A stretch of DNA of 64,000 nucleotides from Escherichia phage vB_EcoM_JNE01 (OR670491); one strand, 5' to 3'. Counted from the stretch's first letter, positions 883 through 56,405 are shown. A program made the numbers and translations. The notes: a model not told the origin generated them from the sequence alone.

Positions 883-1236
883 ATGAGATTCATTAAAGCG
901 AGCTTGCAATCACAAAAGAAATGTCAAATTATAATTGAACACGATGGTTTGAAGATATCAGCATTTGATTTTGGAAGTACTAAACATTCTATTTGCTTTA
1001 ATGATCCTGACAACGCAGTGTATTGTCTTATGATTAAAGTAAACTACTTACATAAACTTATAACAGAACCTGAATATTTTGTTCGTTTCAAAAACTTTAG
1101 TACAGAGAAACTACATGAGATATATAGAATTTCAATGATTGCATATACATTTTTGGGAATACCTGATGATGAACTTGATGTGACATTCCCTGGTGAAGCT
1201 AAAATACCTAAAGAATCATTTTGGAAGGATTTATGA
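883..1236 (+). CDS. hypothetical protein
   Basis: ORF from track; no recognisable motif; weak RBS. Confidence 0.4.
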   Translation: MRFIKASLQSQKKCQIIIEHDGLKISAFDFGSTKHSICFNDPDNAVYCLMIKVNYLHKLITEPEYFVRFKNFSTEKLHEIYRISMIAYTFLGIPDDELDVTFPGEAKIPKESFWKDL

Positions 1237-1874
1237 AACACAGACTTAATAAGTTTTACACTGACTATTTCAAAGATGTAAATGCATTCTTTAAAAAATA
1301 CAAGATGCATACTAAAAATGCACAGAACAGACGAAACCCAGCATTTGCCAGACCAAGTAGAAATATTACTTCATGTACACCTACGTGCTCAACGAAAAAG
1401 ATGTTAAGTGCCAAAGGTATAAAGATAGCTTATATTGAAGCATATAAAGATAATGCACGTTTGAATAGTACTGATGATATTAAATTCAGTTCTGTTAAAA
1501 TGAAAATTGGTGATATTCAGTGTGAAATGGCTGTTGATTTGGAATACAATCTGGAAATCAGAATGTATGTAGCTCACGATAGTTCACGAAAAGTGGAATT
1601 AATGGGAATAACATCTTATATTTGTAAAGATACAGATGGATTTGCATTGAAAACTTCAACGTTCAACGTTGATTCGGTAGATGATCTCGATGGTGCATTA
1701 AATCATCTGATGAGTTCTGAATGTACAGACGAACTAATGTTCCAGTACTCACTGTTGTATAAAGATATTGACCAGTACATTGAAATGTGCAAAGTACTAC
1801 AACGTGTATATGATATGTACATGAAGACTGGAAAACTAACTGCATTTATTTTATATAACGCAGTAGAGGTATGA
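1233..1874 (+). CDS. hypothetical protein, outlying member of the FQxS-motif family
   Basis: ATG overlapping upstream stop (ATGA); contains DELMFQYSLLYKD matching the motif of the 44-64 kb array; track ORF starts at TTG 1221. Confidence 0.5.
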   Translation: MKHRLNKFYTDYFKDVNAFFKKYKMHTKNAQNRRNPAFARPSRNITSCTPTCSTKKMLSAKGIKIAYIEAYKDNARLNSTDDIKFSSVKMKIGDIQCEMAVDLEYNLEIRMYVAHDSSRKVELMGITSYICKDTDGFALKTSTFNVDSVDDLDGALNHLMSSECTDELMFQYSLLYKDIDQYIEMCKVLQRVYDMYMKTGKLTAFILYNAVEV

Positions 1875-1875
1875 T

Positions 1876-2085
1876 ATGGAAAAGTTTTATAGTTCACTAC
1901 TTCTATCTACTGAACTTGTATCATTTATGGTGTGCAAGACTAAGAAAGATTATTACATTAATAATCCAAATCCTTTAAATGATATAGAGCTATCACTTAA
2001 ATTTGTAAATTGTACTGAAAATATATTAAAGTACAACAATAAAGTTTATTTTAATGTATTGAAATTGATATTTGTATATAACTAA
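1876..2085 (+). CDS. small hypothetical protein, outlying member of the EYY/LIYKY small-protein family
   Basis: C-terminal VYFNVLKLIFVYN resembles conserved C-termini of the 13.5-17.4 kb array; followed by terminator. Confidence 0.4.
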   Translation: MEKFYSSLLLSTELVSFMVCKTKKDYYINNPNPLNDIELSLKFVNCTENILKYNNKVYFNVLKLIFVYN

Positions 2086-2088
2086 AAA

Positions 2089-2115
2089 GCCAGTACAAAG
2101 TACTGGCTTTATTTT
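2089..2115. terminator. bidirectional rho-independent terminator between convergent gene blocks
   Basis: gccagtac-aaa-gtactggc hairpin flanked by A-run upstream and T-run downstream; lies between plus gene end 2085 and minus gene end 2114. Confidence 0.6.
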
Positions 2116-3319
2116 ATATACCACGACTGGGTATTTGATATAATTGGAATTTAGTGTAGTAATCAGAAACTGTTGTCCCGGCTGCTTGTGGGATATAGCC
2201 ACTCAAATACACATCCCCTTGATTATCCATATACACTGTTGTACATTCACTTGAACAGAATAACTCGGTGTTAGATACTTTAGGAGCATCAACTGGTGTT
2301 ACAAATGTAGTACTTGATGTTGTATTACCGCGACCGAGCTTACCATACGTGTTTATACCACACATATAAAGTGAATCGGCAGTTTTAACCGTAAGCCCAC
2401 CATATGTTAATGAATTTGATTTCATTTCCATATCATCTGATATTGGTAGAGTGGAGATAGTGGATAATACTGTCCAAGAATTAGCGGATGAACCATTACC
2501 CAAGTTACCATCGGACTGAATCCCACTTGCACGAACTGTATATGTATTATTCGTGTTGTGTTTATATACAACCCATGATGCACTCCCACCGAGTTCATAA
2601 TGTATAACAGTATTGTTGGCGAATGCACCCATTTGTGTCCATACTCTAATGTTAGTTGCATTATTACTTATACCAAGCGAACCCCATGTGTTTTGACCAG
2701 TGACCCAAAGTGTTTTATCAATTTTCTGCACAATCACTGCACTTGAACCTGTTTTAACACTATCAACATTCGTATTAATTGACGTAAAAGTTGATAATCT
2801 AGTGGTTGTGTTATTACCAAAATATCCCTGTGTATTCGTCCCCATTCCATATAGCGTACCATTTTCAAGTAAAACAAAAATACCCTCACCTACAAGTTGA
2901 ATGTCCTTAATTTGGGACAATTGTGTAGCATTGAATACTGATGTAAAATATGAAGTACAATCAGTATAAGTACTGGCAGTACTTAAACCTGCACCAATAG
3001 CTTTACCAACCCCACTGTAATAAAATTTATTATCTTCAGTTTGGATTAAATTAAAAGTACCTTGGGCTGTTCTGAAACGTTTTACATTTTGGTATATTAA
3101 AGTCCATTCTTTTACTTTCGCATTATGTACACCATTCCCGAATCCATAGTTTTGTGAAGTAGTTCCACCTATACCCATTAAGTCTCCATTTTTATATAAT
3201 AGTAAGAGTGCTGTTGCTGGAATTACTGACGCACTATAACCATTGTACATAAAGATTTCTTTCACTTCAGGAACTTTCATTTTATTAGCGTATTTAACCA
3301 TTCTTGCAAAAGGTAACAT
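2114..3319 (-). CDS. RCC1-like beta-propeller repeat protein, paralogue 1 of 9 (possible virion adhesin/fibre-type protein)
   Basis: 401-aa ORF; N-terminus MLPFARMVKYAN shared with array; G/N/S/T/Y-rich with GxNxxGxxG-type repeats; AGGAGG RBS. Confidence 0.7.
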   Translation of the reverse strand: MLPFARMVKYANKMKVPEVKEIFMYNGYSASVIPATALLLLYKNGDLMGIGGTTSQNYGFGNGVHNAKVKEWTLIYQNVKRFRTAQGTFNLIQTEDNKFYYSGVGKAIGAGLSTASTYTDCTSYFTSVFNATQLSQIKDIQLVGEGIFVLLENGTLYGMGTNTQGYFGNNTTTRLSTFTSINTNVDSVKTGSSAVIVQKIDKTLWVTGQNTWGSLGISNNATNIRVWTQMGAFANNTVIHYELGGSASWVVYKHNTNNTYTVRASGIQSDGNLGNGSSANSWTVLSTISTLPISDDMEMKSNSLTYGGLTVKTADSLYMCGINTYGKLGRGNTTSSTTFVTPVDAPKVSNTELFCSSECTTVYMDNQGDVYLSGYIPQAAGTTVSDYYTKFQLYQIPSRGI

Positions 3320-3396
3320 AAAATCCTCCTTTATTCATTATACTATATTTAGCCAAAAAGGAAAAGCCAGTACTTGAGTACTGGCATTATAAAGAA
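3320..3396 (-). promoter_or_regulatory. conserved inter-cassette junction: terminator hairpin, TATAAT-like element, AGGAGG RBS
   Basis: minus-strand reading: gccagtactcaagtactggc hairpin + T-run, then aaatatagtataatgaataaaggagg before ATG; near-identical copies between array genes. Confidence 0.55.
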
Positions 3397-4572
3397 TCAA
3401 ATTGTAGGAAGTAGGAATTCTTTCATAACAGATGAACTACTCGCACTGACATTATCTGGTGATTTCCCTGCGTAGTATAATTTATTATTAATGAACATAT
3501 ATAATGTTGCATCATTCCCTGCAACAAGAGAAACCTCTTTATTAAAAACAACACCACTAGGTAAAATTGCTTCAACGAATGAACCTGATTCGCGTGTGGT
3601 ATTATTTGCTAATTGACCATTGTTATTATAACCAGTACTATAAATTTTACCTGAACTATAATACACAAGCCCACGTGTACTAGTGTTTTCTATACGAAGG
3701 AATTCACTATCATCTGGAACTGAAGTTGATAAAGTTGCATTTAACTTATAAGCGGATGTTGTATTATTATTACCCAACTGACCATAACCTTGATATCCTA
3801 GTGTATACATAGGACATGATTCTGGTGTACCTTTAGTTATAACACCAAAATAATTCGAACTACAAAAAGCGTCTATAACTTCTGTAACAGGTGTACCCTT
3901 ATATTGAACCCAAGGGAATACATATGATTGTTGTTTGCCATTCCCTAAAGTACCAGAGCTTGTTGTTCCGGTACGCCATATTGTATCATCAAGTTTAATA
4001 ATCCAGTTAGCAGATGTTATAGATGAACAGAATTTTTTAACATTATCAATTAAGTATGTAAATTTATTATAATATGATGCAGTGTTTAGCCCAAACTTAG
4101 CACCAGTATTATCACCTAACAAATATAAACTATTATCAGTACCTAAAATGACAGCATAATCATAACCTACATATATCTCTTTTATTTTTGAAATACCAAA
4201 TTGTGTAAAATAGCTTGTACATTCAGTGAATGTTGTTACTGTATTTGTTGTATTATTACCTAACCATTTATCAAAACCACTAAAAAAGAATCTATCATCA
4301 TTTGTGCGTATTAGACAAAAAGCGTTCCCTGTACTACACCAGAAATCTTTAACATTGCTATATATTTTTGTCCATTCCTGTACCTGTGTCGTATTACCTA
4401 GACCAAAAATACCACCATTTTGAAGACCGATGGCCCATACTGAACCATTTTTATCAAGTAGCATTGTAGTTGTAAATGAGTATCCAGATGATGGTGTAAC
4501 CAATTTAACAAAATTTGGGATATATGGCACGACCTTATTTCCGTACTTAGCCATCCTTGCAAAAGGTAACAT
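3397..4572 (-). CDS. RCC1-like beta-propeller repeat protein, paralogue 2 of 9
   Basis: 391-aa ORF; N-terminus MLPFARMAKYGN; motifs such as GYNNNGQLANN and GYQGYGQLGNN. Confidence 0.7.
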   Translation of the reverse strand: MLPFARMAKYGNKVVPYIPNFVKLVTPSSGYSFTTTMLLDKNGSVWAIGLQNGGIFGLGNTTQVQEWTKIYSNVKDFWCSTGNAFCLIRTNDDRFFFSGFDKWLGNNTTNTVTTFTECTSYFTQFGISKIKEIYVGYDYAVILGTDNSLYLLGDNTGAKFGLNTASYYNKFTYLIDNVKKFCSSITSANWIIKLDDTIWRTGTTSSGTLGNGKQQSYVFPWVQYKGTPVTEVIDAFCSSNYFGVITKGTPESCPMYTLGYQGYGQLGNNNTTSAYKLNATLSTSVPDDSEFLRIENTSTRGLVYYSSGKIYSTGYNNNGQLANNTTRESGSFVEAILPSGVVFNKEVSLVAGNDATLYMFINNKLYYAGKSPDNVSASSSSVMKEFLLPTI

Positions 4573-4646
4573 AATTTCTCTCCTTTATTCATTATAATGT
4601 ATTTACCCAAAAAAAGAAATGCCAGTACTGGAGTACTGGCATTATA
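4573..4646 (-). promoter_or_regulatory. conserved inter-cassette junction (hairpin terminator + promoter-like element + RBS)
   Basis: gccagtactggagtactggc hairpin at about 4621-4640 and conserved junction sequence. Confidence 0.5.
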
Positions 4647-5990
4647 TTATTGTAAAGGTATTTCAGTTAAGGTGCTATATTGTGTTCCGTTATATATACC
4701 CCTCCAGTATAATTTACCTTCAGTACTAATAACTAATAAACCATATGTTGTAAACCCTAGAGTTCCTCCGACATACATAGCATCTTTTATTCTAATACCA
4801 ATGTCTTCATATGTAAACTCTGATACTTCACCAGCATTCCACGCTGGACTGTAATAATAATCAGTATAAACACCATGTGCTTTATATAGGGACGTCAATC
4901 CAGGTTCAAAAATTACAGTTCCGCAGTAGTTCATTCTTATTTTAGTACTGGATGAAGTTGGTATATTACCAAAAATATTATCTTTTAACCCAGTAGTTAG
5001 AACGTTGAAACCACCACCAATGGAGTTAACGTTATTCACGCCACTTAGACTCATACCAACGTTGTATCCCATGCAATACACACTACTGCTACCATTCCAG
5101 TAAGAAAAACCGCCGCCACGACCACAACGATATAATTGTGAATTTGAACAGTACATCATACCTTCGTTTGATGCGTCATAGTCGTCTGCTGTTCCAATTG
5201 TAGCTACAGTAGTCCAAGTTTTAATTACTTGGTTTGCACTAGCTGGTGTTTGTATGCCATATCTGATATTATATCCCTTACCGACTATGGTCCCATCTAA
5301 TAATTTGGCATACAGTACTGGTCTAGCCCCATTATAATAAACGTTATTATGTGACATATCAATTGTACTTCGTAATGAAACTGCTTTTTGTGTCAATTGG
5401 TTATCTTTAGTAAAAGATGAAAAGTAGTAATCTGCTGTGGAGTTGTTTATTAAACCCTGAAAGGACTGACCCATATACCAGACTTCTCCGTTTGAGTTCA
5501 ATGCTGCCAAAATACAACTATATTTGGATGTGTACCCAGTATTAGTGCCTGGACCTTTATCATACCCACCACTGAATACCATATCAACGACATCACCAAC
5601 GCTAGTGAAATATGACGAAACATCGATGAATCCAGATGTTAAAAATGGTGCAGTCGTCATCCCTGTATTTGTGAATATTCCATTTGCATATACACCACAA
5701 AAATTATACGAACCATCAATATCCTGTACTATGATACCATTAGAAAGTAACCAAAAGTTTTTTACATTTTTACGAACCAATTCAACACCTGCACCATTAT
5801 TAGGAGTTATTCCAAATGTAATTGCTTTAGTTGTGCCCATGCCATATAAATTCCCATTGGTTGCTAATATTGCACCAAGCCAGTTTCCACCTCCATTACT
5901 ATTACGACCCATACCAATGGAATCGAATTTCTTTACAGTTGGAGCTTCTACTGTATTCCCATAATCAAATAATCTAACAAAAGGTAACAT
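4647..5990 (-). CDS. RCC1-like beta-propeller repeat protein, paralogue 3 of 9
   Basis: 447-aa ORF; N-terminus MLPFVRLFDYGN; Gly/Asn/Thr/Tyr-rich repeats. Confidence 0.65.
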   Translation of the reverse strand: MLPFVRLFDYGNTVEAPTVKKFDSIGMGRNSNGGGNWLGAILATNGNLYGMGTTKAITFGITPNNGAGVELVRKNVKNFWLLSNGIIVQDIDGSYNFCGVYANGIFTNTGMTTAPFLTSGFIDVSSYFTSVGDVVDMVFSGGYDKGPGTNTGYTSKYSCILAALNSNGEVWYMGQSFQGLINNSTADYYFSSFTKDNQLTQKAVSLRSTIDMSHNNVYYNGARPVLYAKLLDGTIVGKGYNIRYGIQTPASANQVIKTWTTVATIGTADDYDASNEGMMYCSNSQLYRCGRGGGFSYWNGSSSVYCMGYNVGMSLSGVNNVNSIGGGFNVLTTGLKDNIFGNIPTSSSTKIRMNYCGTVIFEPGLTSLYKAHGVYTDYYYSPAWNAGEVSEFTYEDIGIRIKDAMYVGGTLGFTTYGLLVISTEGKLYWRGIYNGTQYSTLTEIPLQ

Positions 5991-6062
5991 ATATTCCTCC
6001 TTTATTCATTATACTATATTTAGCCAAAAAGGAAAAGCCAGTACTTGAGTACTGGCTTTATG
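5991..6062 (-). promoter_or_regulatory. conserved inter-cassette junction (hairpin terminator + promoter-like element + RBS)
   Basis: gccagtacttgagtactggc hairpin at about 6037-6056; junction identical to 3320-3396 over most of its length. Confidence 0.5.
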
Positions 6063-7214
6063 TCAATAAACATCCCAAGGTAATGGTGTCTTTCTAAACC
6101 CATACCTAGTTGCGTTCTGCCCATCTCCGGCTATGTATCTACCAGTACCACACTGATATAATTCAGTACTGCTACATATCGCACCACCAATAGTACCACT
6201 ACCCCACTGAGTTATATTGGAATATAATATTGGCAAATCACTACATTTAGTATATAATGCAACAGTAGCAGCACCACTCGCACCACCAAAAACACTTCGG
6301 TTCGAACCCGTGTAATATATACCATCTGGACTCATAAATGCGGAAGTATAAGTTGTACTACAATCCACTGGACTTCTTATATTATTAAGATCACTTGGGT
6401 ATACCCTAGCACCATATGTGTATACATTACCTGTAGTAGTAATACCATTACCTAACTGACCATTATTTTGTCCACCACATGTAACTAACGATCCACTACC
6501 AGAAACAATGGCAGTAGCATTATAAGAAGTACCTATAACAATAGAAGCTCCCGCCAATAGGTATGGGGCAGGAACTCCGGCTGCATTCCCCTGACCTAAT
6601 TCACCATTGACATTTCTTCCCCATCCGTATACAGAAGTGGTATCCAATTGGCATAGTACTGAACCATAACTAAACGTATATCGTATATCCTTCACTGCCG
6701 ATGGTAAACCACTAACTTTAGTTGCAACACTAATAACGCCAGAAACGCCTGTTACTCCAGCGTTCGCGTTCAGATTACGTCCATATGCATATAAAGAGCC
6801 ATCAGCAGTTTTAATATGCATCATGCCATCTGTGCAATATAATGTATCTATACTACCCACTGCAACCTCTCCCATACTGGACGTTATATCGTTCCACCCA
6901 AGCGTTGTAGTACTAGAAATTAAGTTATTTCCGGCGTAAAGTATTCTATTATCATTAGTAACTACTACTGTATAATTGGCAGTAACGCCAATTAATCTAA
7001 CTTTCTCGTATATCTTAGACCACATTCCTATTGAATTTGTGTTAGTATCCAGAAACCCCAACTGACCAGCGGTATTATATCCAATACCCCACACATCACC
7101 TTCACTATCCAATAACACTTCATGGGAAAAACCAATCTTAAAATCTTTTATCGTTGGTGTTTCTGGAACAGGTTTAATATTTCCGTACTTAACCATTCTA
7201 GCAAAAGGTAACAT
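6063..7214 (-). CDS. RCC1-like beta-propeller repeat protein, paralogue 4 of 9
   Basis: 383-aa ORF; N-terminus MLPFARMVKYGN; clear RCC1-type motifs WGIGYNTAGQLGF, GWGRNVNGELGQGN, CGGQNNGQLGNG. Confidence 0.75.
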   Translation of the reverse strand: MLPFARMVKYGNIKPVPETPTIKDFKIGFSHEVLLDSEGDVWGIGYNTAGQLGFLDTNTNSIGMWSKIYEKVRLIGVTANYTVVVTNDNRILYAGNNLISSTTTLGWNDITSSMGEVAVGSIDTLYCTDGMMHIKTADGSLYAYGRNLNANAGVTGVSGVISVATKVSGLPSAVKDIRYTFSYGSVLCQLDTTSVYGWGRNVNGELGQGNAAGVPAPYLLAGASIVIGTSYNATAIVSGSGSLVTCGGQNNGQLGNGITTTGNVYTYGARVYPSDLNNIRSPVDCSTTYTSAFMSPDGIYYTGSNRSVFGGASGAATVALYTKCSDLPILYSNITQWGSGTIGGAICSSTELYQCGTGRYIAGDGQNATRYGFRKTPLPWDVY

Positions 7215-7285
7215 AATTCCTCCTTTTATTTGTTATACTATATTTAATAAAAAAGAAAAGCCAGTATCAAGTACTGGCATTATTA
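7215..7285 (-). promoter_or_regulatory. conserved inter-cassette junction (hairpin terminator + promoter-like element + RBS)
   Basis: gccagtatcaagtactggc hairpin at about 7260-7278. Confidence 0.5.
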
Positions 7286-8476
7286 TTACAATTGTCTAGG
7301 TGTATCCAGAACATATCTATTTGTACTAGGACCACCATCATCATCAGTTCCGGTTGAATATATATTTTTCATATCAGCAGTTAGAAAAGTACGATACGAA
7401 CCGCGATATATTTTTATTTTATCATACATAGAATATGTTATTTCTGACGGCAATGGACATGCAGTAAATTTACCAATGGTAACATCAGAACCAACACCCA
7501 ATGTGCCAGCATAACTACTCGCATTTAAACCAGTTGCATATACACCTGCACTCGTAACTAGTATACTAGATTGTGTTGGGTATCCAGTATGAATTGAATA
7601 CAAAGTACCGGGTGGTAAGGTTGTACTATTGTTTCCTAAAACTCCATTAACAGTGCTAGATGTAGTTTTATTTCCCCATGCTCCATTATTAGCTAATCCA
7701 CCAACTAGAAACTGACGTGCTCCTGTATTTGGATTCTCCACTAAAGCACTGACTGAACCCATTGAGCATACAGTGTATTGTAACGTTTTTGTGTATGTTG
7801 TACTTGGCTGATATAAAGTATATTCATTATATAAAGTCCATGTAGTGCTGGAACTTATACCGGATGTACCACCACCAATATATAAATTATTTTGTGTATC
7901 AAAAAACATTGCACAGCTATTTGTTGACATTATTTGTGCAATATCAACATCTGGTGTTACAGCTTTAACAAATGAACCATCGGTTATTTGTTGAGTTTTT
8001 CCAGTACCATCAGCGAATTGTTTAGCCCCACTCCAACCAGTACTCCATATTGTATTATTATCCATTAAGAAAGTAAACCACGTAGTACCTGCATACATCT
8101 GTTTAATTGAAGTACTTGAACTTTGTGTGAACAAATTTTCAATATATTGGTTATAACTTAAAAATGATGTAGTACTAGTTTCTAAACCAATATAACCACC
8201 ATAGCCACAATAAAAATAATTTAAGTCATTATCTTGTACTAACAAAGTTCCTTCTGACATCCAACAATCGTTAACGTTTTCTCTAATTAATGTCCATGTT
8301 CTTAATGCAGTGTTGTTTCCTCTCCCAAACTTCCCAAAACTATTATTGCCTCGTGCGTATAGTTGACCATCAGTATAAAGTACAACAACATCACTATTGA
8401 TTGGTATTATTTTCTTAATTTGAAGAGGCTCAGGTGTAATATTTCCATAATCAAACATTCTAACAAAAGGTAACAT
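7286..8476 (-). CDS. RCC1-like beta-propeller repeat protein, paralogue 5 of 9
   Basis: 396-aa ORF; N-terminus MLPFVRMFDYGN; motif GNNSFGKFGRGNN. Confidence 0.65.
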   Translation of the reverse strand: MLPFVRMFDYGNITPEPLQIKKIIPINSDVVVLYTDGQLYARGNNSFGKFGRGNNTALRTWTLIRENVNDCWMSEGTLLVQDNDLNYFYCGYGGYIGLETSTTSFLSYNQYIENLFTQSSSTSIKQMYAGTTWFTFLMDNNTIWSTGWSGAKQFADGTGKTQQITDGSFVKAVTPDVDIAQIMSTNSCAMFFDTQNNLYIGGGTSGISSSTTWTLYNEYTLYQPSTTYTKTLQYTVCSMGSVSALVENPNTGARQFLVGGLANNGAWGNKTTSSTVNGVLGNNSTTLPPGTLYSIHTGYPTQSSILVTSAGVYATGLNASSYAGTLGVGSDVTIGKFTACPLPSEITYSMYDKIKIYRGSYRTFLTADMKNIYSTGTDDDGGPSTNRYVLDTPRQL

Positions 8477-8553
8477 AACTAATTCTCCAAATTCAAATAA
8501 TTATAATGTATTTACAAAAAAAATACCAGCACATATTTCAGTACTGGTATCAT
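8477..8553 (-). promoter_or_regulatory. inter-cassette junction (degenerate hairpin + promoter-like element)
   Basis: accagcac...gtactggt imperfect hairpin at about 8524-8550; junction more diverged than the others. Confidence 0.4.
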
Positions 8554-9735
8554 TTATGGTAAAATGATAGATTGTAACGAACTCATACCCAATGCTGGAA
8601 CACTAGCCTGTGGTGCTGGAGAATTCAATTTTGGTGATGAAACCGCATATGACATTCCTGAACCCAAATCTGGATCAAAAACTACAGCACAATAATTCCC
8701 ACTATATATAAGTCCATTCTTGTATCCTTGTGCACTTTGAATGCATTTCGTGAACGTACCAATATCTGTAGTGGCATTTATTAAGTTCCTCCCACGATAA
8801 CCGCAGGTGTATATGAAATTATCATCGCCTATGTACATACTAGAATCCCCAGAAGAACTACATAGATAAGACATATAAGCACGCATGTTTTTAGGAGCAA
8901 CTGACAATGTACCTGCATAGAATTTATTATTCGAACCCGTAATATCACCATCACCCAATGCACCAAAACTTCCCCAGCCAGTACCATAATATCTCTTATC
9001 ACTCAAGAATATAATACAGTTGTTATTACACATCTTGACTTGATATATCAATGAAGGATCAACCCCAGGGAATGATTCAGTGTATGTTAGAACAGCCAGA
9101 TCAGTACTAGCATTACATTGATGATATGTATTAGTACCAGCGGACAAGATTGTTCCATTAGCTAACAGAATTCTCGCAGTACCAGTACCAGCAGTACAAG
9201 CAACTGCACTTCCTGCACTTCCGGTGTATATTTGTCTGAAAGTAAAGAAACCAACAGTTTTACTTCCCTGCCCACTCCAACCAGTATTATCAACTCCACA
9301 CGCCCATACTGAACCATCTTCCATGATCATCATTACACCAAAGCGTTCTATTGAAATATAAACAATCTTTTTAGTATCAACTGCACGAAATCTAGAAGTT
9401 ATATCAGTCCATACCTTAACACTTACCGCCGTCGCACTGGAAGTAGGATCTTCACCAGCTATCATTATCCTCCCATTGTTAGTAAGATACATTGTCTGAC
9501 TATAACCAGTACTACAAAACTTAACACTATCAGTCTCTGGAACTTTTAACCACTCGTTGTAACGTGTTACGTTAGTGTTATTACCTAACTGATAATAGTT
9601 ATTCATCCCAGATACATATAACACACCATCCTTTATTAAACTATAAGTCGCACTATAGTCACTACAGGTATAACGTGTACCCACAGGTGGCTCAACGACG
9701 TTCCCATAATCAAACATTCTAACAAAAGGTAACAT
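8554..9735 (-). CDS. RCC1-like beta-propeller repeat protein, paralogue 6 of 9
   Basis: 393-aa ORF; N-terminus MLPFVRMFDYGN; motif GMNNYYQLGNNTN. Confidence 0.65.
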   Translation of the reverse strand: MLPFVRMFDYGNVVEPPVGTRYTCSDYSATYSLIKDGVLYVSGMNNYYQLGNNTNVTRYNEWLKVPETDSVKFCSTGYSQTMYLTNNGRIMIAGEDPTSSATAVSVKVWTDITSRFRAVDTKKIVYISIERFGVMMIMEDGSVWACGVDNTGWSGQGSKTVGFFTFRQIYTGSAGSAVACTAGTGTARILLANGTILSAGTNTYHQCNASTDLAVLTYTESFPGVDPSLIYQVKMCNNNCIIFLSDKRYYGTGWGSFGALGDGDITGSNNKFYAGTLSVAPKNMRAYMSYLCSSSGDSSMYIGDDNFIYTCGYRGRNLINATTDIGTFTKCIQSAQGYKNGLIYSGNYCAVVFDPDLGSGMSYAVSSPKLNSPAPQASVPALGMSSLQSIILP

Positions 9736-46647: not shown

Positions 46648-46656
46648 GGAGCTATA

Positions 46657-48690: not shown

Positions 48691-49035
48691 ATGGATTTTG
48701 ATTATTCGATTTACAGTATAAAGTACCATGATTCTTTTGAATTGTATTGTAATCTTGTAAAGGGTGATAGCAAGCACGATTGTGAGCAATTCCTGCGATA
48801 CGATGGGAAACAATTTCATTTCTATGATTACTGTACTGGAGATAAAGAAGAAGTACCAGATTATACGGGGCTGGATGATGCAGAACTATTTCAGGCTAGA
48901 CTTGTATTTGATTCGAGATTAGTTTGCAGTATTGAAGAGATGATTCCTTTACAACAGGAATTAAAAGAACATTCCGAAAAGAAAGTCCAGTACGGATATG
49001 ATCATCGTTATTACTTTAATCTAGAGGATAAGTAA
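48691..49035 (+). CDS. FQxS-motif family protein, short A-type
   Basis: start MDFDYSIY after GGAG; motif DDAELFQARLVFD; track ORF begins upstream at 48583. Confidence 0.55.
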   Translation: MDFDYSIYSIKYHDSFELYCNLVKGDSKHDCEQFLRYDGKQFHFYDYCTGDKEEVPDYTGLDDAELFQARLVFDSRLVCSIEEMIPLQQELKEHSEKKVQYGYDHRYYFNLEDK

Positions 49036-49511
49036 TGAGTTTAGAAAGTGCACTGGAATTAGGTCGAAGGATAGTTCCTATTATTAATTTCTACCAAAAG
49101 AATTTATATAAGCTAGGATACTTCAATGATGAAATCCTGACTCCAGAAGAACTGGAGTTGGGATACATGTGTATGTTAGCCTTTGGTCAGTATCATACTA
49201 GTGGTGATTGTGATATGAACCTTAGTGGTGGATATCTTGATTTCGAAAGGAATAGTGCACTCCAATTCGTAGACAGAAATGGTTCAGTACAACGTATTGA
49301 ACCGGAAGAGTTTAAAGAATTTAGTACTATGACAGAGGATATGTATTTCCAGTTAAGTACTCTTTACAGTTCAGAAGCACTTGATGCAATGATACTTTTT
49401 GATTACTTATATGGCAGTGATGTTCCTAACTTCGTGTATCTAAGTCTTACTCGCTTGGATATTCTGGAAGAATTATATGAACAGGATTTATTAAAACAGG
49501 TACATATGTAA
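49035..49511 (+). CDS. FQxS-motif family protein, long B-type
   Basis: N-terminus MSLESALELG; motif TEDMYFQLSTLYSSEALDAMILFDYL. Confidence 0.6.
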   Translation: MSLESALELGRRIVPIINFYQKNLYKLGYFNDEILTPEELELGYMCMLAFGQYHTSGDCDMNLSGGYLDFERNSALQFVDRNGSVQRIEPEEFKEFSTMTEDMYFQLSTLYSSEALDAMILFDYLYGSDVPNFVYLSLTRLDILEELYEQDLLKQVHM

Positions 49512-49864
49512 TGGAATTTGAATTTGTAATATCGACACATAGTTTCAAGTTACAGCGTCAGTACTTTTGTAATTTAAACAAAGGTGATATGATACACGCA
49601 GGGAATGAATATCTTCATTACAGTAGTGGTAAATTTACATTTGTTAATTACGATAATTATCTTAATCCACATGAAGAGATGCTGGATTATACAGTACTAC
49701 CAGATGGTGAACTATTTCAGCAGTCCCTGGTATTTGATAAGAAGTACATTTGTTCTTTTGAGGATGTTTGTGCTTTGCAGAAGATCATAAAAGAATACGA
49801 CAAGAGTATTTCTGGGCGTGATATAATAATTAAGGAATATAAGTTCAACCTAGAGGATATGTAA
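49511..49864 (+). CDS. FQxS-motif family protein, short A-type
   Basis: motif PDGELFQQSLVFDKKY...LQKII. Confidence 0.6.
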   Translation: MEFEFVISTHSFKLQRQYFCNLNKGDMIHAGNEYLHYSSGKFTFVNYDNYLNPHEEMLDYTVLPDGELFQQSLVFDKKYICSFEDVCALQKIIKEYDKSISGRDIIIKEYKFNLEDM

Positions 49865-50301
49865 TGAGTTTAGAAAGAGCATTAGAAATTGCTGAGTTGA
49901 TTGATTTGTGCAGAACTAAAATCAAAACTGACTGCCTCAATGGATATCTATACCAGGAAGGCAATTCATATTTCCGAAGTTTATTTGATGAAAGTTCTGA
50001 TAGTATTGAAATGTATGATGATAAGTTAGATACCAGATATACTGTTGAATGCGATGTTAGTTTAGAAGATAATTACATATTCTTTTGTAAGAACTCTAGT
50101 ATTGCATTAAGTTATAATGAGCTTCTCCCTTATTCAGTACTTGAAGGTAATTGGGGTAGTCCAGAATATTACTTCCAGCAAAGTACTATCTACAGTGAAG
50201 AAGTTCTTGATAAACTAGTCATTTTGTGGTACTTTAATAACACTAGTCCCAATAACTTCTACATGGACTTGGACATATTAGATGTAATGAAAGGGGGATA
50301 A
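49864..50301 (+). CDS. FQxS-motif family protein, long B-type
   Basis: N-terminus MSLERALEIA; motif SPEYYFQQSTIYSEEVLDKLVILWYF. Confidence 0.6.
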   Translation: MSLERALEIAELIDLCRTKIKTDCLNGYLYQEGNSYFRSLFDESSDSIEMYDDKLDTRYTVECDVSLEDNYIFFCKNSSIALSYNELLPYSVLEGNWGSPEYYFQQSTIYSEEVLDKLVILWYFNNTSPNNFYMDLDILDVMKGG

Positions 50302-50303
50302 AC

Positions 50304-50783
50304 GTGTCATTTGAAAGTGCCTTTATGGAAGCCCAACGAATCCATGAGTACATGATTCGTATTATTAATGATGATAATCCAAATATAACAAAGTACTGTG
50401 ATGCATCATGGACTGAGTACTACCTATGTACACCAGCACAAAAAAATTACATGTTGGATTCAAATACTCGTATTCTACATTTATGCCCTGGTAGTAATCA
50501 CTTCTACTGTTGTCGTACAGCAGAGCACAGTACTATGGAGTTCAGTAGGAGTAGTCCTATTATTTTTTATAACTGGAATGTAGAGGGTTCTAACTATACT
50601 GACTGTACACACCAGATAGATGCAGAAGTACTGGATGAGCCGTGGGATTCTTCTGATTATTATTTTCAGATGAGCACTGTGTACGAAGAAGATGTACTTG
50701 ACACTTTAGTACTGATGTGGTACTTTAAGCACAGAACAGATTATCCAGATTTCTATCTGGAGTACTTCCACGACATAGGCTAA
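50304..50783 (+). CDS. FQxS-motif family protein, long B-type
   Basis: GTG start after AAAGGGGGA; N-terminus MSFESAFMEA; motif SSDYYFQMSTVYEEDVLDTLVLMWYF. Confidence 0.6.
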   Translation: MSFESAFMEAQRIHEYMIRIINDDNPNITKYCDASWTEYYLCTPAQKNYMLDSNTRILHLCPGSNHFYCCRTAEHSTMEFSRSSPIIFYNWNVEGSNYTDCTHQIDAEVLDEPWDSSDYYFQMSTVYEEDVLDTLVLMWYFKHRTDYPDFYLEYFHDIG

Positions 50784-50792
50784 GAGGATTAT

Positions 50793-51341
50793 ATGGATTA
50801 CACATTTAATGGTTTAGAGTACAGGCACTGTATTGCAATGGCTAAAGTACTGGAGTACGTTGTTACCAGATTGCAATGCAATGAATTTCTTAAGCGAAAT
50901 ATCTTATATCTAAATTCCGATGGTTACTTGTGCCATATTAATGATTTTGTTGACTTTGGTTGGGGCGTTCGTATTGACAAAGATACCATATCAAGAGCCG
51001 GATGCAGGGGTGCAGTTCTTACGCACTGTATTTGTTTTTCTCCTGATAGTAGATCTGTTATTATCAATCACGACAGTCAAAAATATTTTCTGGGTCTGGA
51101 CAATGGAGATTTGGAAGCGTGGTTCTTCCAGAACATTTTAGTACTTGAACCTATGAAAGTACTATATATGGTAGTGTTTAATTATTTGTACAACATTAAA
51201 TGCATAGATTCATTTGATATAGAAATGAGTCTTATGCGTATTATCAATCAAATACCTGAACTCCAGCGTATTACAGAAGAACCGTACTTCAACGATTTCA
51301 CAGAATTATATCGTATGCACAGCTTTGAAGGAGATGAATAA
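50793..51341 (+). CDS. FQxS-motif family protein (divergent)
   Basis: motif GDLEAWFFQNILVLEP; AAGAGGA RBS. Confidence 0.5.
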   Translation: MDYTFNGLEYRHCIAMAKVLEYVVTRLQCNEFLKRNILYLNSDGYLCHINDFVDFGWGVRIDKDTISRAGCRGAVLTHCICFSPDSRSVIINHDSQKYFLGLDNGDLEAWFFQNILVLEPMKVLYMVVFNYLYNIKCIDSFDIEMSLMRIINQIPELQRITEEPYFNDFTELYRMHSFEGDE

Positions 51342-51823
51342 TGTCATTTAAAGGAGCACTTGAAAAAGCTAATACTATTTTCGAGTACTATAAACTATTT
51401 CGTAATGGTGACTTGGATGATCTTTTTCAATGCAGCGATTTTTCTAATTCATACTTTCATACCAATAGTGATGGTAAGACATGGATAGTATACAGTACTA
51501 GTGGATCACGTGAAACTATTGAGTACTGCTGCAATCCAGACAGGGATTATATCTCGTACTGTCATAATTCTGAATATATTAATCTTGAGTTATGGACACA
51601 TGATGACAGTACTTACATGAAGACAACTGTTGATGGTGATGAGTTAAATGCCATGTACCAAGATTGGTTATCAGAAGATTATTACTTCCAGCAAAGTACT
51701 TTGCACAAGGAAATGTATCTTGATGCTATGGTAGTTCTTTCTTATCTTCGTTCTAAGAATTTAAGTCCTTTTTATTTGAATTTAGGTTATCTTGAAGAAA
51801 TCAAGAAGTCAATGCAAGGGTAA
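51341..51823 (+). CDS. FQxS-motif family protein, long B-type
   Basis: N-terminus MSFKGALEKA; motif SEDYYFQQSTLHKEMYLDAMVVLSYL. Confidence 0.6.
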   Translation: MSFKGALEKANTIFEYYKLFRNGDLDDLFQCSDFSNSYFHTNSDGKTWIVYSTSGSRETIEYCCNPDRDYISYCHNSEYINLELWTHDDSTYMKTTVDGDELNAMYQDWLSEDYYFQQSTLHKEMYLDAMVVLSYLRSKNLSPFYLNLGYLEEIKKSMQG

Positions 51824-51826
51824 TCA

Positions 51827-52174
51827 ATGAAAACTGAAATAGATGTAACTAACTTTTCGTACCACGGTACACTGTATTGTATTTTTAAACTCAAGAACAA
51901 AGATGTATCAATTCGTGCTCTTTATAATATTTGTACTACCGAAACTGAATACGATTTGTACATAGTTAAAGATGAACGTGGTGAGCGTGGTAGGATTCCT
52001 AATTACGCTGAATGTTCATACAGGGATGAATATGAAGCTTTTATGTTCCAGGAATCATTAGTATGGGAGAAGGATGTTGATTTCTTCTTAGTAAAAGAAA
52101 TCCAAGAGTACTTCCAACGTAATCACGAAAAGTTTATAAATGATGATTCCAAATTTACTTTAACACTAGGATAA
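51827..52174 (+). CDS. FQxS-motif family protein, short A-type
   Basis: motif YEAFMFQESLVWEKD...EIQEYF. Confidence 0.55.
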   Translation: MKTEIDVTNFSYHGTLYCIFKLKNKDVSIRALYNICTTETEYDLYIVKDERGERGRIPNYAECSYRDEYEAFMFQESLVWEKDVDFFLVKEIQEYFQRNHEKFINDDSKFTLTLG

Positions 52175-52177
52175 TTT

Positions 52178-52570
52178 ATGACATTCGAAGATTCACAAAG
52201 AATTGTAAGTAAATGTATGGAATTAATAAAAGAATTAAAAGAAGTAACAGAATATGATCTATCATTTGCTGAACAAAATGAATTCAAGATTGATGGTTCT
52301 TTTTACTACAATCCCCTTTGGGATAAAAAAATCACATTCTTCTCAAAAGAGGGTTATAAAACAGATTATCCCCTAGAGCCAGAGCACGATCCTAGTACTG
52401 AAGAAGGTTTCTTTCAGTTGAGTTTACTTTACAATGATGATATAGTTCTAATGTACGCGATGTTCGATGCGTTCAAAAAGAGCGATTACGAAGAAATTTT
52501 CTTCCCTAATTATCGTTACCGTGTTGAACTAACTGGGATGGTGAAATGCAAAGTCAAAGTGGAGGAATAG
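52178..52570 (+). CDS. FQxS-motif family protein, long B-type
   Basis: N-terminus MTFEDSQRIV; motif TEEGFFQLSLLYNDDIVLMYAMFDAF. Confidence 0.6.
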   Translation: MTFEDSQRIVSKCMELIKELKEVTEYDLSFAEQNEFKIDGSFYYNPLWDKKITFFSKEGYKTDYPLEPEHDPSTEEGFFQLSLLYNDDIVLMYAMFDAFKKSDYEEIFFPNYRYRVELTGMVKCKVKVEE

Positions 52571-52571
52571 T

Positions 52572-52883
52572 GTGACACACGATGAATATAAAAGAGTCAT
52601 TACTGTGCAGAGTTCACTCCTTGATATAACTAAGGAGGATGCTGCATATGCACTTGTTTGTAAGAATATTCTTTCTGATTACCAAGATTTCTTTACGAAG
52701 AAATACACTGCTCGTTCTGTTTTGTTCACGGTGTACTTGGTAGGGGAAGAACAAATCCAAGAAATGAAAATAAACGAGTACTGTATAAATTTACACGCGA
52801 TATTCTTCAGAGTAGGTAAAAACGGTTCTAACTCATACGCTGCCAGATGTTTCAGTACTGGATACGTTGAATTACTCCCATAG
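52572..52883 (+). CDS. hypothetical protein (no family motif)
   Basis: GTG start after GGAGGAA RBS. Confidence 0.45.
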   Translation: MTHDEYKRVITVQSSLLDITKEDAAYALVCKNILSDYQDFFTKKYTARSVLFTVYLVGEEQIQEMKINEYCINLHAIFFRVGKNGSNSYAARCFSTGYVELLP

Positions 52884-52885
52884 GA

Positions 52886-52913
52886 TTGACACTTGGGAGT
52901 TTTGTGCTATAAT
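52886..52913 (+). promoter_or_regulatory. internal array promoter (TTGACA-N16-TATAAT)
   Basis: ttgacacttgggagttttgtgctataat. Confidence 0.55.
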
Positions 52914-52929
52914 ATTTTTAGAGGTACTT

Positions 52930-53241
52930 ATGACAACATATACAGTTGAGGTTAGCAGTTACGGGACGTACACGTACAGGGCAGGTGTAGTAGGTAAATT
53001 AGATCAGATCCTTGCATACGATGCATTTGAAGATTTCTGGTACATTCCATATCCTAATGAACGCAAATACGCTGATATCAGTGAAATCTTTAAGATGAAT
53101 GAAGAAGAGTTGTTTCAATTCTCATTAGTATGGGAACATAAAATCCCAATGGAAGTCGTTCTTGCACTGAATCCTATCATCATGAATTTAGTACTGAATT
53201 GTGAAACGCCCCGCAACATGAAGATTACATTTGAGGTGTAA
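52930..53241 (+). CDS. FQxS-motif family protein, short A-type
   Basis: start MTTYTVEV after promoter and AGAGG RBS; motif NEEELFQFSLVWEHK. Confidence 0.55.
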   Translation: MTTYTVEVSSYGTYTYRAGVVGKLDQILAYDAFEDFWYIPYPNERKYADISEIFKMNEEELFQFSLVWEHKIPMEVVLALNPIIMNLVLNCETPRNMKITFEV

Positions 53242-53712
53242 ATGATTAATTTAGAGAATAGCAGGACTTTAGCGAATAAGGTTATTACAATTGTTCAGTA
53301 CTACCATACAAACAGGCATCTTCTTACTGAGAATGTTCTGGTAGTTAGTAGGAGTGAAGATTTCGATGTAGATGCCTTAAAGGTATGTGAATGTATTTCT
53401 GAAGATAATTTAACAGAATACAGTGCTCGTTATCAGTACATGTGCTACAATAAGATGAGACGCTTGCACATTTCGAGTGACATGTACCCAACTAAAGATG
53501 AATTCGAAGAATTTGATATCACCAAAGATGAGTGCATGTATGCCTGTACTGAAGAAGGTTTCTTTCAATTAGAGACAATGTATTACCCTGAAGTTGTTGA
53601 AATTATTGCAGCTTTTGGTTTCATTTATAATAGCGATATTAACGTTGACTTCTATCTGGACTTAGATTATCTGGATTATCTTTATGCTGAGGCTACTAAA
53701 AATGAACATTAA
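53242..53712 (+). CDS. FQxS-motif family protein, long B-type
   Basis: N-terminus MINLENSRTLA; motif TEEGFFQLETMYYPEVVEIIAAFGFI. Confidence 0.6.
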   Translation: MINLENSRTLANKVITIVQYYHTNRHLLTENVLVVSRSEDFDVDALKVCECISEDNLTEYSARYQYMCYNKMRRLHISSDMYPTKDEFEEFDITKDECMYACTEEGFFQLETMYYPEVVEIIAAFGFIYNSDINVDFYLDLDYLDYLYAEATKNEH

Positions 53713-54238
53713 TATTAACAATCCAGAATCACTTGAGTACTTTTATTCTTTTATTACTAAAGCAGTTCCTTTGATCAAACAATCATTTCTCGAAGGTACT
53801 GAAGATAAACTTCTGAATTCTAAGTACACTATTGATGGCACAGTCCAAGAAAAATCTTCAGCGTTTCAGTCATGTGAAGTGCGTAATGTATTTTGTAAAA
53901 GCGAAGTGCCTGTTATCATTGGGACAAGTGTGTCTAATTCTTTTATGACAGTAGATGATGATGGTAAAATTCTACGTTTCGAGTACACAAGAAAAAGTAA
54001 TGTCTTTGAGTTATTCACTAATACAAAATACAAGTTCAGTTCTTCGTGTAACGCATTTCTTATTCCTGAATATAATTACACAGAATTTGAAGAACAATGT
54101 TTCCAGTTGCGTTGTACCGATGAGAACTGTGAACTAATGATTTTCTTAATGAAACTAAGAATGGTTATGAATAATACATTTGCAATGTACTTACCGTTCT
54201 TAAAAGTAAATGAAGTATTCAATGAAGGTGTACTGTGA
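53702..54238 (+). CDS. FQxS-motif family protein (divergent)
   Basis: motif FEEQCFQLRCTDENCELMIFLMKL; internal ATG of track ORF 53684..54238. Confidence 0.5.
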   Translation: MNININNPESLEYFYSFITKAVPLIKQSFLEGTEDKLLNSKYTIDGTVQEKSSAFQSCEVRNVFCKSEVPVIIGTSVSNSFMTVDDDGKILRFEYTRKSNVFELFTNTKYKFSSSCNAFLIPEYNYTEFEEQCFQLRCTDENCELMIFLMKLRMVMNNTFAMYLPFLKVNEVFNEGVL

Positions 54239-54444
54239 GTAAAATAAAGTACATCAATGATGATTACATTATGAAGAACGCTATTAAGTACTTCAGTAAT
54301 TCTGCCAATCAGGGTGACAATCTTAAGATGGTGGAGATTCGTGTACTCATATACTTAGGAACACAACACCAGGAAAAATTGATTGCAGAATATCTTGATT
54401 CACTAAAACGACATGTAGAGAAAATTTATTATGGAATACAATGA
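54235..54444 (+). CDS. small protein, LGTNYQE-motif family (outlying copy inside FQxS array)
   Basis: motif IYLGTQHQEKLIAEYL. Confidence 0.55.
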   Translation: MSKIKYINDDYIMKNAIKYFSNSANQGDNLKMVEIRVLIYLGTQHQEKLIAEYLDSLKRHVEKIYYGIQ

Positions 54445-54931
54445 AGTTTTGAAGTTATACGAAGATATTTGTACTGCAATTAAAGTTGTGGAACTTGATA
54501 CAAAGAATCCAAATCCCAAGTTACATACACAGATAGTTAGTCCAGTAGCTTCCTTCCGTAAGATATTAATAAAATCAGACTACGAGATGGAACACTTAAT
54601 GTTTGTACATGATGAGAAGTTGACTAATATTGTACCGAACTCTCATTTCGAACAAGCAATGCATACGTTCATGTCATTCCACAAGGACAGTACTAAAATC
54701 ATGTTACACAGTGATATATACACTGAGTATGATATTGTTCCTGTGGAGTTGAATGCTGACAGTTATTTTCAGTACAGTTTTGTGTACGACGAGACGCTAC
54801 TGATGATGCAGTTTCTTTCTAATCTATACATGCAGAACGATGACCTTCCGAACTTCATTAAGATTAATATTTCATATCTCAAGATGCCACAGTACTTAAA
54901 GATTAAGGAATACTACAGTGATTTACTCTGA
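54431..54931 (+). CDS. FQxS-motif family protein
   Basis: motif NADSYFQYSFVYDETLLMMQFL. Confidence 0.55.
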   Translation: MEYNEVLKLYEDICTAIKVVELDTKNPNPKLHTQIVSPVASFRKILIKSDYEMEHLMFVHDEKLTNIVPNSHFEQAMHTFMSFHKDSTKIMLHSDIYTEYDIVPVELNADSYFQYSFVYDETLLMMQFLSNLYMQNDDLPNFIKINISYLKMPQYLKIKEYYSDLL

Positions 54932-55460
54932 ATACAATTCGTTAATTGAAACTATTGAAAAGTCCAGACGTGCTCATACGTTAATGGTTAAGTACGATAT
55001 TAATAAGTATAAGAAATTTAGTATTCAAGAACTTGAACTCGGTGAAAATACAAGGAAATTTCTTTCTTATAGTGGTAGAATGTTTATCTCTCTTAATTTC
55101 TTTGAGAATCCAGATTTGGAATTGATGCGTTCTATGGTTACATCAATGGACGATAAAATACAAAGTATCTATTTCCGTAATGGCAAGAAGATGGAAATCC
55201 ATGTGTACTATCAGTGTGATGACCGTTTATCATATGATATTACAAACTATCCACAATTCAGTACTTCAGACGATGCAGCTTTATTCCAGTACAGTACTCT
55301 GTACAGTAATTTTGATTTCATGTGCTTGTACATAATCAATGCCCTACGAGAACTGGACTATAACAATTACAACATCAACTGCTCTGTAATGCAGGACGAT
55401 GGTTTCGATGAAGGTATTGATGAGTTACTTACATATCTAAATGAGTACATTAATGAATAA
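54918..55460 (+). CDS. FQxS-motif family protein
   Basis: motif SDDAALFQYSTLYSNFDFMCLYII. Confidence 0.55.
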   Translation: MIYSEYNSLIETIEKSRRAHTLMVKYDINKYKKFSIQELELGENTRKFLSYSGRMFISLNFFENPDLELMRSMVTSMDDKIQSIYFRNGKKMEIHVYYQCDDRLSYDITNYPQFSTSDDAALFQYSTLYSNFDFMCLYIINALRELDYNNYNINCSVMQDDGFDEGIDELLTYLNEYINE

Positions 55461-55513
55461 AATAGAAATAAAATCTTTTTGTAATAGTTTTATAAAAGAT
55501 CTGGAGTACTAAT

Positions 55514-55882
55514 ATGAAACAGGTATTTCGTTATACGTATTACACTACAAAAAAGCAATTGGTTTCTTTATTTGGTTTCAAGACTTTGAAGACAAATGCA
55601 TATCAAAGGGTATTCATTGGCATTGATGATAATGGTTTCTTTCAATTACTGTCCAATGAAAGTGATAAGTCCTATACTATCCCTGACACTACTGTACTGG
55701 GAGAAGGTGAATTATTCCAGTTGAGTACTGTATGGGATGATTCAGAATATGCATGTAATTTTGAGAATTTTGTTCAGTACCAGAAAATATTACGAACTGA
55801 TTTTGAGAACTACCCAGTGAAAGTATTAAGTACTGGAAACGAACAATACAGACAAAAAGTGGTTGAACTTGATGCGTATTGA
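55514..55882 (+). CDS. FQxS-motif family protein, short A-type
   Basis: motif GEGELFQLSTVWDDSE...YQKIL. Confidence 0.55.
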   Translation: MKQVFRYTYYTTKKQLVSLFGFKTLKTNAYQRVFIGIDDNGFFQLLSNESDKSYTIPDTTVLGEGELFQLSTVWDDSEYACNFENFVQYQKILRTDFENYPVKVLSTGNEQYRQKVVELDAY

Positions 55883-56405
55883 AACAATAAGAACACACAG
55901 TGCAGAAACATTCTTTGATATTTGGCTTGTCCAGGAGCTAATGACTATTGGTTCTATTCCTACGAAATTATTAAATTACACACATAACAATAGTAATTCT
56001 GTACCACACCAATCAATTACCGATAGTAGTGGTGTGGTGTACATGCGTAGTAGTACTAATATTAATAATATAAAAAGTGCATACAATAATTCATGTGGCT
56101 TCTTTACTTATAAATCCGATACTCACCCATCATTCAGTACTATATTACAGGGGAATGTAATTTATCTTGACATGTTGAAACCACAAGAGTATACTGACGA
56201 TGTAATTAATGAAATTAGTACTGCAACAGATCCGAATCTGGTAATTGCTTCTATGGTATTCTCTTACATGAGATACAGTGCTATGCCGTGTACGTGGGCT
56301 TCAGCACCTGATCTCAGGAGATATTTAAATTCACTCCTAGGCACAAACTTCAGAGAACATTTAAATGCACGACGATTTATACAAAATAAACTACAGATTG
56401 AGTAG
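55872..56405 (+). CDS. hypothetical protein with C-terminal LGTNFRE motif
   Basis: C-terminal YLNSLLGTNFREHLNARRFI resembles LGTNYQE family; ATG chosen over TTG 55863. Confidence 0.45.
   Translation: MRIETIRTHSAETFFDIWLVQELMTIGSIPTKLLNYTHNNSNSVPHQSITDSSGVVYMRSSTNINNIKSAYNNSCGFFTYKSDTHPSFSTILQGNVIYLDMLKPQEYTDDVINEISTATDPNLVIASMVFSYMRYSAMPCTWASAPDLRRYLNSLLGTNFREHLNARRFIQNKLQIE

Follow-up and report, generated by a model that had tools for sequence, protein, structure and literature searches.

How members of three families of small phage proteins came to lie outside their home arrays is the question raised by a 64,000-nucleotide stretch of Escherichia phage vB_EcoM_JNE01 (OR670491), hereafter called the window. 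The stretch carries tandem arrays of the S family (EYY/LIYKY-like proteins), the L family (LGTNYQE-like proteins) and the F family (proteins with an FQxS motif), together with two further FQxS-containing genes, O1 and O2, and L-like and S-like genes at foreign positions. The initial annotation saw the three families as interdigitated and proposed that their members had been relocated by tens of kilobases through recombination between repeated junctions and promoters, and might act together. All open reading frames (ORFs) that it named are present at their coordinates, and the interdigitation was borne out, as L genes lie within the F array, a gene with the FQxS module lies within the S array and an S-like gene lies beside O1. 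The proposed movement fared differently. The outliers are probably long-standing residents, left in place by old and ordinary gene-family evolution rather than by recent shuffling.

The evidence that carries this view is positional. The S home array (13484..17439, plus strand) comprises 14 profile-positive genes of 59-69 residues (phrog_11711), along with two ORFs that fail the S profile (13484..13729 and 14124..14339), and has O2 (14733..15407, plus strand, 224 residues) embedded in it. PBECO4 has the same order as the window, four S genes, O2 and ten further S genes, and Ecwhy_1 has six S genes, O2 and ten S genes. O1 (1233..1874, plus strand, 213 residues) abuts the array of RCC1-like paralogues (in the window nine, 2114..13382, minus strand) in every genome examined. 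The L home array (39061..43921, plus strand; 18 genes of 73-95 residues, phrog_4148) is broken by two non-L ORFs (41625..41978 and 43443..43679), and is followed by the F home array (43918..63784, plus strand; 36 profile-positive genes encoding 105-203 residues), which runs past the window end, by ~5 kb judging from the phage Turkey5. Reciprocal best hits in the F array are collinear with PBECO4 and Ecwhy_1 at 24-60% protein identity, and the F arrays of both phages also hold L genes, in the junction zone and as an adjacent mid-array pair. The synteny comparison that the initial annotation called for yields a largely conserved gene order and shared embedded L genes, and lends no support to recent long-range movement.

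Conservation of place is accompanied by deep divergence of sequence. Against PBECO4 and Ecwhy_1, the three arrays and the O1 module (1..2083, 13480..17546 and 39017..64000) have 24-60% identity at the protein level and mostly no detectable nucleotide similarity, whereas the RCC1-like array and the terminal-repeat region described below are 85-97% identical at the nucleotide level and meet the arrays at sharp boundaries; the arrays are divergence hotspots between these conserved blocks. Most array genes are under purifying selection when compared with Turkey5, and they overlap or abut at most junctions. The distant Erwinia phage Hallingskeid has an O2-like gene immediately behind its RCC1 array, and the 40 kb scanned contain no detectable S, L or F gene. 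An O2-like gene that occurs without an S array suggests that the S array most likely grew around O2, which on this comparison of sequences is probably the older of the two.

The window itself belongs to the genus Asteriusvirus, the PBECO4/121Q-like jumbo phages of E. coli with genomes of ~350 kb, as assigned by megablast. Its nearest record is Escherichia phage Turkey5 (PQ471516), with 96-97% identity and collinear across that record's start. In phages fEgEco12 and vB_Ec-M-J, the counterpart of window position 18001 is position 245, and both records are reported to have direct terminal repeats of ~21 kb. The repeat of fEgEco12 was confirmed by restriction digests (PMC13070987), and sizes reported among related phages are 20,993 bp (PMC13070987) and 20,668 bp (Sharanji, 20.7 kb; PMC11895373). 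From these relatives we infer that window ~17.75-38.98 kb (17750..38980) is the equivalent of the terminal-repeat, or early, region, which divides the S end of the unique sequence from its L/F end. Genes of the terminal repeat form the early class in the related phage PA5oct (PMC7318152). O2 lies 2.9 kb before the right repeat in fEgEco12 and 3.0 kb before the boundary placed here, an agreement that makes the placement consistent. In the packaged linear DNA, the S/O1/O2 end and the L/F end would then be opposite ends of the unique sequence.

Family membership was assessed with hidden Markov models (HMMs) of the 14 S, 18 L and 36 F genes in the home arrays, scored on all six-frame stop-to-stop ORFs of the window (590 ORFs), followed by rescoring with deeper profiles after the ORFs of the equivalent PBECO4 and Ecwhy_1 regions had been added (2,160 ORFs). 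The L-like ORFs that the initial annotation placed inside the F array (48065..48265 and 54235..54444, both plus strand) are clear members, with L-profile E-values of 1.5e-7 and 7e-11 that fall to 8e-10 and 5e-13 with the deeper profile. A third embedded L gene, which the initial annotation did not list, was found at the L/F junction after the first F gene (44204..44434, plus strand; E=4e-7, then 3e-10). All three match the HMM over their full length, encode 66-76 residues and conserve the G and Q that are invariant in the LGTxxQE (hhGTxxQ[ED]) motif of L proteins, with GS in place of GT in 48065; phrog_4148 matches 54235 at E=1.9e-9.

The gene at 44204 is the reciprocal best hit of the PBECO4 gene L001:3214, and 54235 that of PBECO4 L001:15734 and Ecwhy_1 L003:22172, with 4 synonymous and 0 non-synonymous differences from Turkey5. 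Reciprocal best hits pair the gene at 48065 with PBECO4 L001:15547 and Ecwhy_1 L003:22341, both of which adjoin the orthologue of 54235. In the window 48065 lies 6.2 kb upstream of 54235, in a lineage-specific three-gene block, flanked by the lineage-specific ORFs 47884..48087 and 48262..48486. Two of the three embedded L genes would thus occupy genus-conserved positions, and one would have been displaced by ~6 kb in this lineage. Within the L home array, the ORF at 43443..43679 encodes 78 residues with an N-terminal hydrophobic segment and, unlike most of its L neighbours, is among the better conserved of the region (61-62% identity to PBECO4 and Ecwhy_1).

The kinship of O1 and O2 with the F family is more distant. 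Both motifs noted initially are present (DELMFQYSLLY in O1 and EDEMFQWSTII in O2). An extended motif, consisting of acidic residues followed by [FY]F[QM]xS[TL][LIV] ~45-60 residues from the C-terminus, occurs in O1 as TDELMFQYSLLY, 38 residues before the stop. The O1 motif is conserved in 8 orthologues, among which FQYSL is invariant, and the O2 orthologues read F[QM][WY]ST[IV]I. As a regular expression, the extended motif occurs 20 times in the six-frame ORFs of the window versus 0.6 times in shuffled sequence, and outside the F array it finds O1 and O2 alone.

In the plain profile search, the F HMM scored O1 marginally (13-15 bits; E=0.003 among 590 ORFs and 0.004-0.011 among 2,160 ORFs) and returned no match to O2 at E <=10 in the window search, with E=7-72 in the larger database. 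Profile-profile comparison with hhalign, using 8 O1 and 9 O2 orthologues against the F alignment, gave probabilities of 90.6% for O1 (E=1.3e-6) and 81% for O2 (E=1.2e-5), in each case over 34 columns, in O1 placed around the motif, while any comparison with the L or S profiles as controls stayed below 1%. Between O1 and O2 the similarity is weak (BLASTP E=0.044; hhalign probability 41%, E=2.8e-4, 53 columns). The orthologues of O1 measure 213-220 residues with an isoelectric point (pI) of ~8.7 and those of O2 190-224 residues with a pI of ~9.0, in contrast to the acidic proteins of the F array (median pI 4.9, net charge ~-9), so that by size and acidity O1 and O2, being longer and basic, fall outside the array family. 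In PHROGs their full-length sequences belong to phrog_34359 (O1) and phrog_29152 (O2), separate from the array families.

The two genes called FQxS proteins in the initial annotation therefore keep that label for the motif and its surrounding module, and lose it as ordinary members of the array family. The motif in O1 and O2 does not appear to be a product of chance, and the part that they share with the array is a C-terminal module of ~35 residues. Each gene is present in exactly one full-length copy in each of 32 Asteriusvirus records by tblastn, at 29-32% (O1) and 36-44% (O2) identity apart from Turkey5. The spread of orthologues was taken from GenBank phage records, and a word-indexed protein search for O2 returned a single near-identical match. 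Profile scoring of the outliers as a whole, named at the outset as what could refute the motif matches, upheld the three L genes and, over its C-terminal part, the S-like ORF, and was marginal for O1 and null for O2 with the F HMM.

A whole-genome map of the families was obtained by scanning the rest of Turkey5 with five profiles as a stand-in for the window's own genome. It revealed a second FQxS cluster among tRNA genes, with six genes at 272.7-276.1 kb and about ten at 284-295 kb (loci L021 and L022), as well as single FQxS genes at 116421, 308335 and 313575; no further L or S members were found elsewhere in the Turkey5 genome. Proteins of the second cluster are acidic (median pI 4.6), and their alignment matches F with a probability of 92.8% and O1 with 78.6% in hhalign. 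Roughly 55-60 Turkey5 genes, about a tenth of its total, share the FQxS module and constitute a dispersed superfamily. The second cluster and the single genes indicate that O1 and O2 are divergent branches of this superfamily, rather than escapees from one array. An exhaustive profile search among 1.84 billion representative proteins recovered only 94 relatives of F, and the family is restricted to this phage clade.

Taken together, the window would consist of the two ends of the unique sequence joined across the terminal-repeat region, with the S, L and F tandem arrays adjoining the repeat. Ancient tandem duplication would have been followed by deep divergence with individual paralogues retained, as in birth-and-death evolution, and O2 is probably the older gene around which the S array expanded. 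Later events would have been local insertions of small size and the replacement of modules at the borders of arrays. Several observations weigh against this account. At 24-60% identity, some of the apparent orthologues could be differentially retained paralogues; what relates O1 and O2 to the array proteins amounts to 34 aligned columns, with the plain HMM marginal or null and with differences in length and charge; and the whole-genome map comes from Turkey5 rather than from the genome of the window.

Alternatively, FQxS could be a recombining C-terminal cassette that was fused repeatedly to unrelated N-terminal parts. This would explain why ~35 residues alone are common to the array, the second cluster, O1 and O2, and it agrees with the 16-42 columns of similarity in every cross-group comparison and with the F array alignment, in which mean column identity is 12% and the N-terminal regions are essentially unalignable. 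Rapid N-terminal divergence after duplication of whole genes would give the same pattern, though, and no nucleotide trace of cassette exchange was found. Furthermore, the AlphaFold2 (AF2) model of F, an alpha/beta protein with a predicted local distance difference test score (pLDDT) of 77, shows a confident C-terminal subdomain (FQxS helix, helix, strand, helix) packed on the N-terminal helix as one fold. Domain shuffling of this kind is therefore regarded as unlikely.

A second possibility is that the short motif in O1 and O2 arose by chance or convergence and that the two proteins are unrelated to the array family. The poor F HMM scores, the separate PHROGs and the greater length and basic charge would fit, the two regular-expression matches outside the array compare with ~0.4 expected and are weakly significant on their own, and the Hallingskeid homologue of O2 has a degenerate motif. 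Set against these points are the wide gap in hhalign between the F comparisons and the controls, the invariance of FQYSL in O1 orthologues that are otherwise ~30% identical, the constant setting of the motif (its distance from the C-terminus, the acidic residues before it and the helix after it), and the link of the independent second cluster to O1. Coincidence is thus a poor explanation, and we would give it rather little weight.

Recent dispersal, as first proposed, finds its best arguments in the non-collinear gene at 48065, in the S-like ORF next to O1 and in a similarity boundary at a repeated hairpin. The S-like ORF (1876..2085, plus strand, 69 residues) is probably a divergent S-family gene, and its description as EYY/LIYKY-like holds for the C-terminal 43 residues (ending ...VLKLIFVY), which the S profile aligns at E=2.6e-6 to 3e-5 (~22 bits), and not for the N-terminal EYY segment, which is unaligned. 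It has no PHROG match and occurs in the window and in Turkey5 only, where it is annotated; with zero differences between the two, the ratio of non-synonymous to synonymous substitution rates (dN/dS) is uninformative. The ORF is absent downstream of O1 in PBECO4, Ecwhy_1, E9.1, TH47, Turkey3 and UE-S1. The boundary is at 2084, where nucleotide similarity to PBECO4 resumes exactly at a bidirectional terminator-like hairpin (2086..2110, stem of 11 pairs), another copy of the hairpin found between RCC1 genes, with matches at 7256, 11033, 6033 and 3362.

Of all the outliers, only the displaced 48065 and this lineage-specific ORF look rearranged. Recombination between repeated junctions and promoters over tens of kilobases is very unlikely to account for the rest. 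These have orthologues at equivalent positions throughout the genus, and no match in nucleotide sequence connects an outlier with its home array (best E 0.003). The repeated promoters (~16 copies) occur within 18.1-38.1 kb only and adjoin no outlier, and the S/O1/O2 and L/F ends are presumably opposite in the packaged linear genome (PMC13070987). The RCC1 junction repeats are likewise confined, to 3.2-13.4 kb.

The L-like C-terminus that had been assigned to an ORF at 55872..56405 (here 55863..56405, plus strand, 180 residues) presents a less certain case. The sequence LLGTNFRE is indeed there, in a tail of 77 residues that resembles an L protein, and it is the sole match to LGT...E outside L among 44,452 residues. 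The family-invariant Q is replaced by R, and no profile score is significant: the L HMM gives E=5-27 and hhalign a probability of 20.6% (P=0.001) over 14 columns only, against 60 random controls at or below 7.5%. No homologue of the ORF exists in PBECO4 or Ecwhy_1. The Turkey5 annotation includes it, and its dN/dS of 0.56 is ambiguous and not frame-specific. Nearby, Turkey5 carries an extra annotated coding sequence (CDS) of 339 nt (locus L016, 11698..12036) between the homologues of 54918..55460 and 55514..55882, corresponding to window 55460..55514, which shows gene-sized insertions or deletions in the F array between phages that are 96% identical.

What the families do is a matter of less confidence than how they evolved. 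Tentatively, and with some doubt, they may be early or accessory proteins, probably involved in host takeover or counter-defence, and would be transcribed in part from host-type sigma-70 promoters. Strong, near-consensus sigma-70-like sites are found at array starts and internal gaps (13432, spanning 13432..13460; 39003; 52886; 57297), with further candidate promoters at 43374 and 46024. Two results speak against this functional part: promoter-like sites are overall fewer than in shuffled sequence (58 vs 91.5), and fold searches with the F and L models gave no functional lead. With F, the search of BFVD returned uncharacterised Asteriusvirus and RaK2 proteins only, and L, modelled by AF2 as a four-helix protein with a pLDDT of 97, matched generic helical folds only. 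Searches of Pfam, NCBIfam and PDB sequences with representatives and whole alignments gave no usable match for S, L or F. The PHROGs of the F array (phrog_9317, phrog_12674, phrog_19795, phrog_15629 and phrog_13866) are all without functional annotation, as are those of L, S, O1 and O2. The conserved synteny, finally, is compatible with co-expression of the families and with nothing more, which is as far as the suggestion that they act together can be taken.

Two specific identities were considered and set aside. Weak helix-turn-helix (HTH) matches occur among L proteins (HTH_26 in 2 of 21, E=0.023; HipB in one, E=0.0035, residues 5-49), and an assignment to the Cro/C1 (XRE) HTH proteins was rejected since the matches fell short of the curated Pfam and NCBIfam cut-offs and of a test of structural likeness. 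A reading of FQxS as a protease site, comparable to ENLYFQ/S of the tobacco etch virus (TEV) protease, was likewise rejected, as the motif is predicted to be helical within a confidently folded subdomain and its serine stands two residues after the glutamine rather than adjacent to it.

If the FQxS subdomain has a role of its own, it would be that of a shared scaffold or docking unit underlying surfaces that vary. Perhaps, although this is highly speculative, it plugs the ~55-60 diversified, mostly acidic and presumably early or accessory proteins into one shared partner, a host machine or a phage system such as Clp protease components, with the variable parts picking the targets. Were this true, co-expressed working sets would lie behind the conserved placement of L genes among F genes and of O2 among S genes. 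Among the genes of Turkey5 are three for ClpP-like protease subunits and one for a ClpS-like adaptor (74.4-80.7 kb and 249.1 kb), whose products are conceivable partners of small acidic proteins.

Gene arrays in this genus have been mentioned before. A report from 2017 on Asteriusvirus (PMC5646251) very probably concerns the same arrays and offers the same explanation, tandem duplication of pre-existing genes, and the RCC1-like gene arrays of phAPEC6 have been cited for genome growth by tandem duplication (PMC7247149). Both reports treat the arrays in one sentence, without family definitions, the FQxS module, embedded L genes, O1 and O2 or the second cluster (PMC5646251, PMC7247149), and no description of the latter four was found in the literature searched. 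PHROGs already contains the window proteins as orphan families, yet it splits the FQxS proteins into many and leaves O1 and O2 unlinked to the array; the link drawn here differs in being a profile-profile match over ~35 residues.

Diverged paralogue arrays beside terminal repeats, with a presumed role in host interaction, are also known from the MGF360/505 genes of African swine fever virus (ASFV) and the terminal host-range families of poxviruses. The phage arrays would resemble these by analogy, in their high divergence between strains, the conserved core and the position beside terminal repeats. They differ in having no relation in sequence or fold, in the bacterial host and in a copy number that seems stable and not accordion-like. 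Multigene arrays of this kind, diverged and adjacent to terminal repeats, are a familiar form of viral genome evolution, and no new mechanism is involved. What is gained is that a large share of the unannotated Asteriusvirus genes reduces to a few orphan families, one of them a dispersed superfamily with a 35-residue module, and that each paralogue keeps its place across deep divergence while the repeat-adjacent arrays diverge far faster than their flanks. As Asteriusvirus phages are therapeutic candidates under characterisation, with most of their genes unannotated, these findings narrow where to seek host-takeover or counter-defence functions and correct the impression of a recently scrambled genome.

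Some further features of the window are recorded here. The stretch 18109..38126 contains ~16 copies of a 50-90 nt element that fill the putative terminal-repeat region, each with a near-consensus sigma-70 promoter (AAAAAGTACTTGCA/TTGACA ... GTATAATGTTTTACAT), a GC-rich stem-loop and a ribosome-binding site. A second repeated element (31458..31550, 34733..34825 and 37483..37575; also at 21023, 27508 and 29187) has a promoter-like sequence (GGGATTGACTCCGGTCAGTCCC...TATTATAT) followed by ~33 conserved nt (AGCCCAYAGGGTGC...GTATCTAT) in six copies; it has no obvious protein-coding content and could specify a small RNA or a leader. Tandem repeats at 18576..18676 and 19301..19465, within ~1-1.7 kb of the putative left terminal-repeat boundary, could be related to the genome terminus, packaging or replication. 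One of them has an 8-nt unit (ACGGCTAA), with further periods of 16 and 48 nt, and the other a 66-nt unit in 2.5 copies at 97% match.

Upstream of O1, the adjoining ORFs 112..468 and 465..836 encode multi-pass membrane proteins of ~120 residues each and are apparently part of a tandem series of genes for 105-125 residues (Turkey5 326-329 kb; PBECO4 gp298-gp303). The nine RCC1-like paralogues encode ~380-450 residues, each beginning with MLPF[AV]R. One copy (9812..10888 plus 10812..10991) is split into an N-terminal ORF of 59 residues and the remaining 358 residues in another frame. An RCC1-like copy of Ecwhy_1 is split likewise (180 nt and 1032 nt), and in PBECO4 a short CDS of 120 nt overlaps the start of one copy (gp293, gp294), so the split may be conserved rather than a sequencing error.

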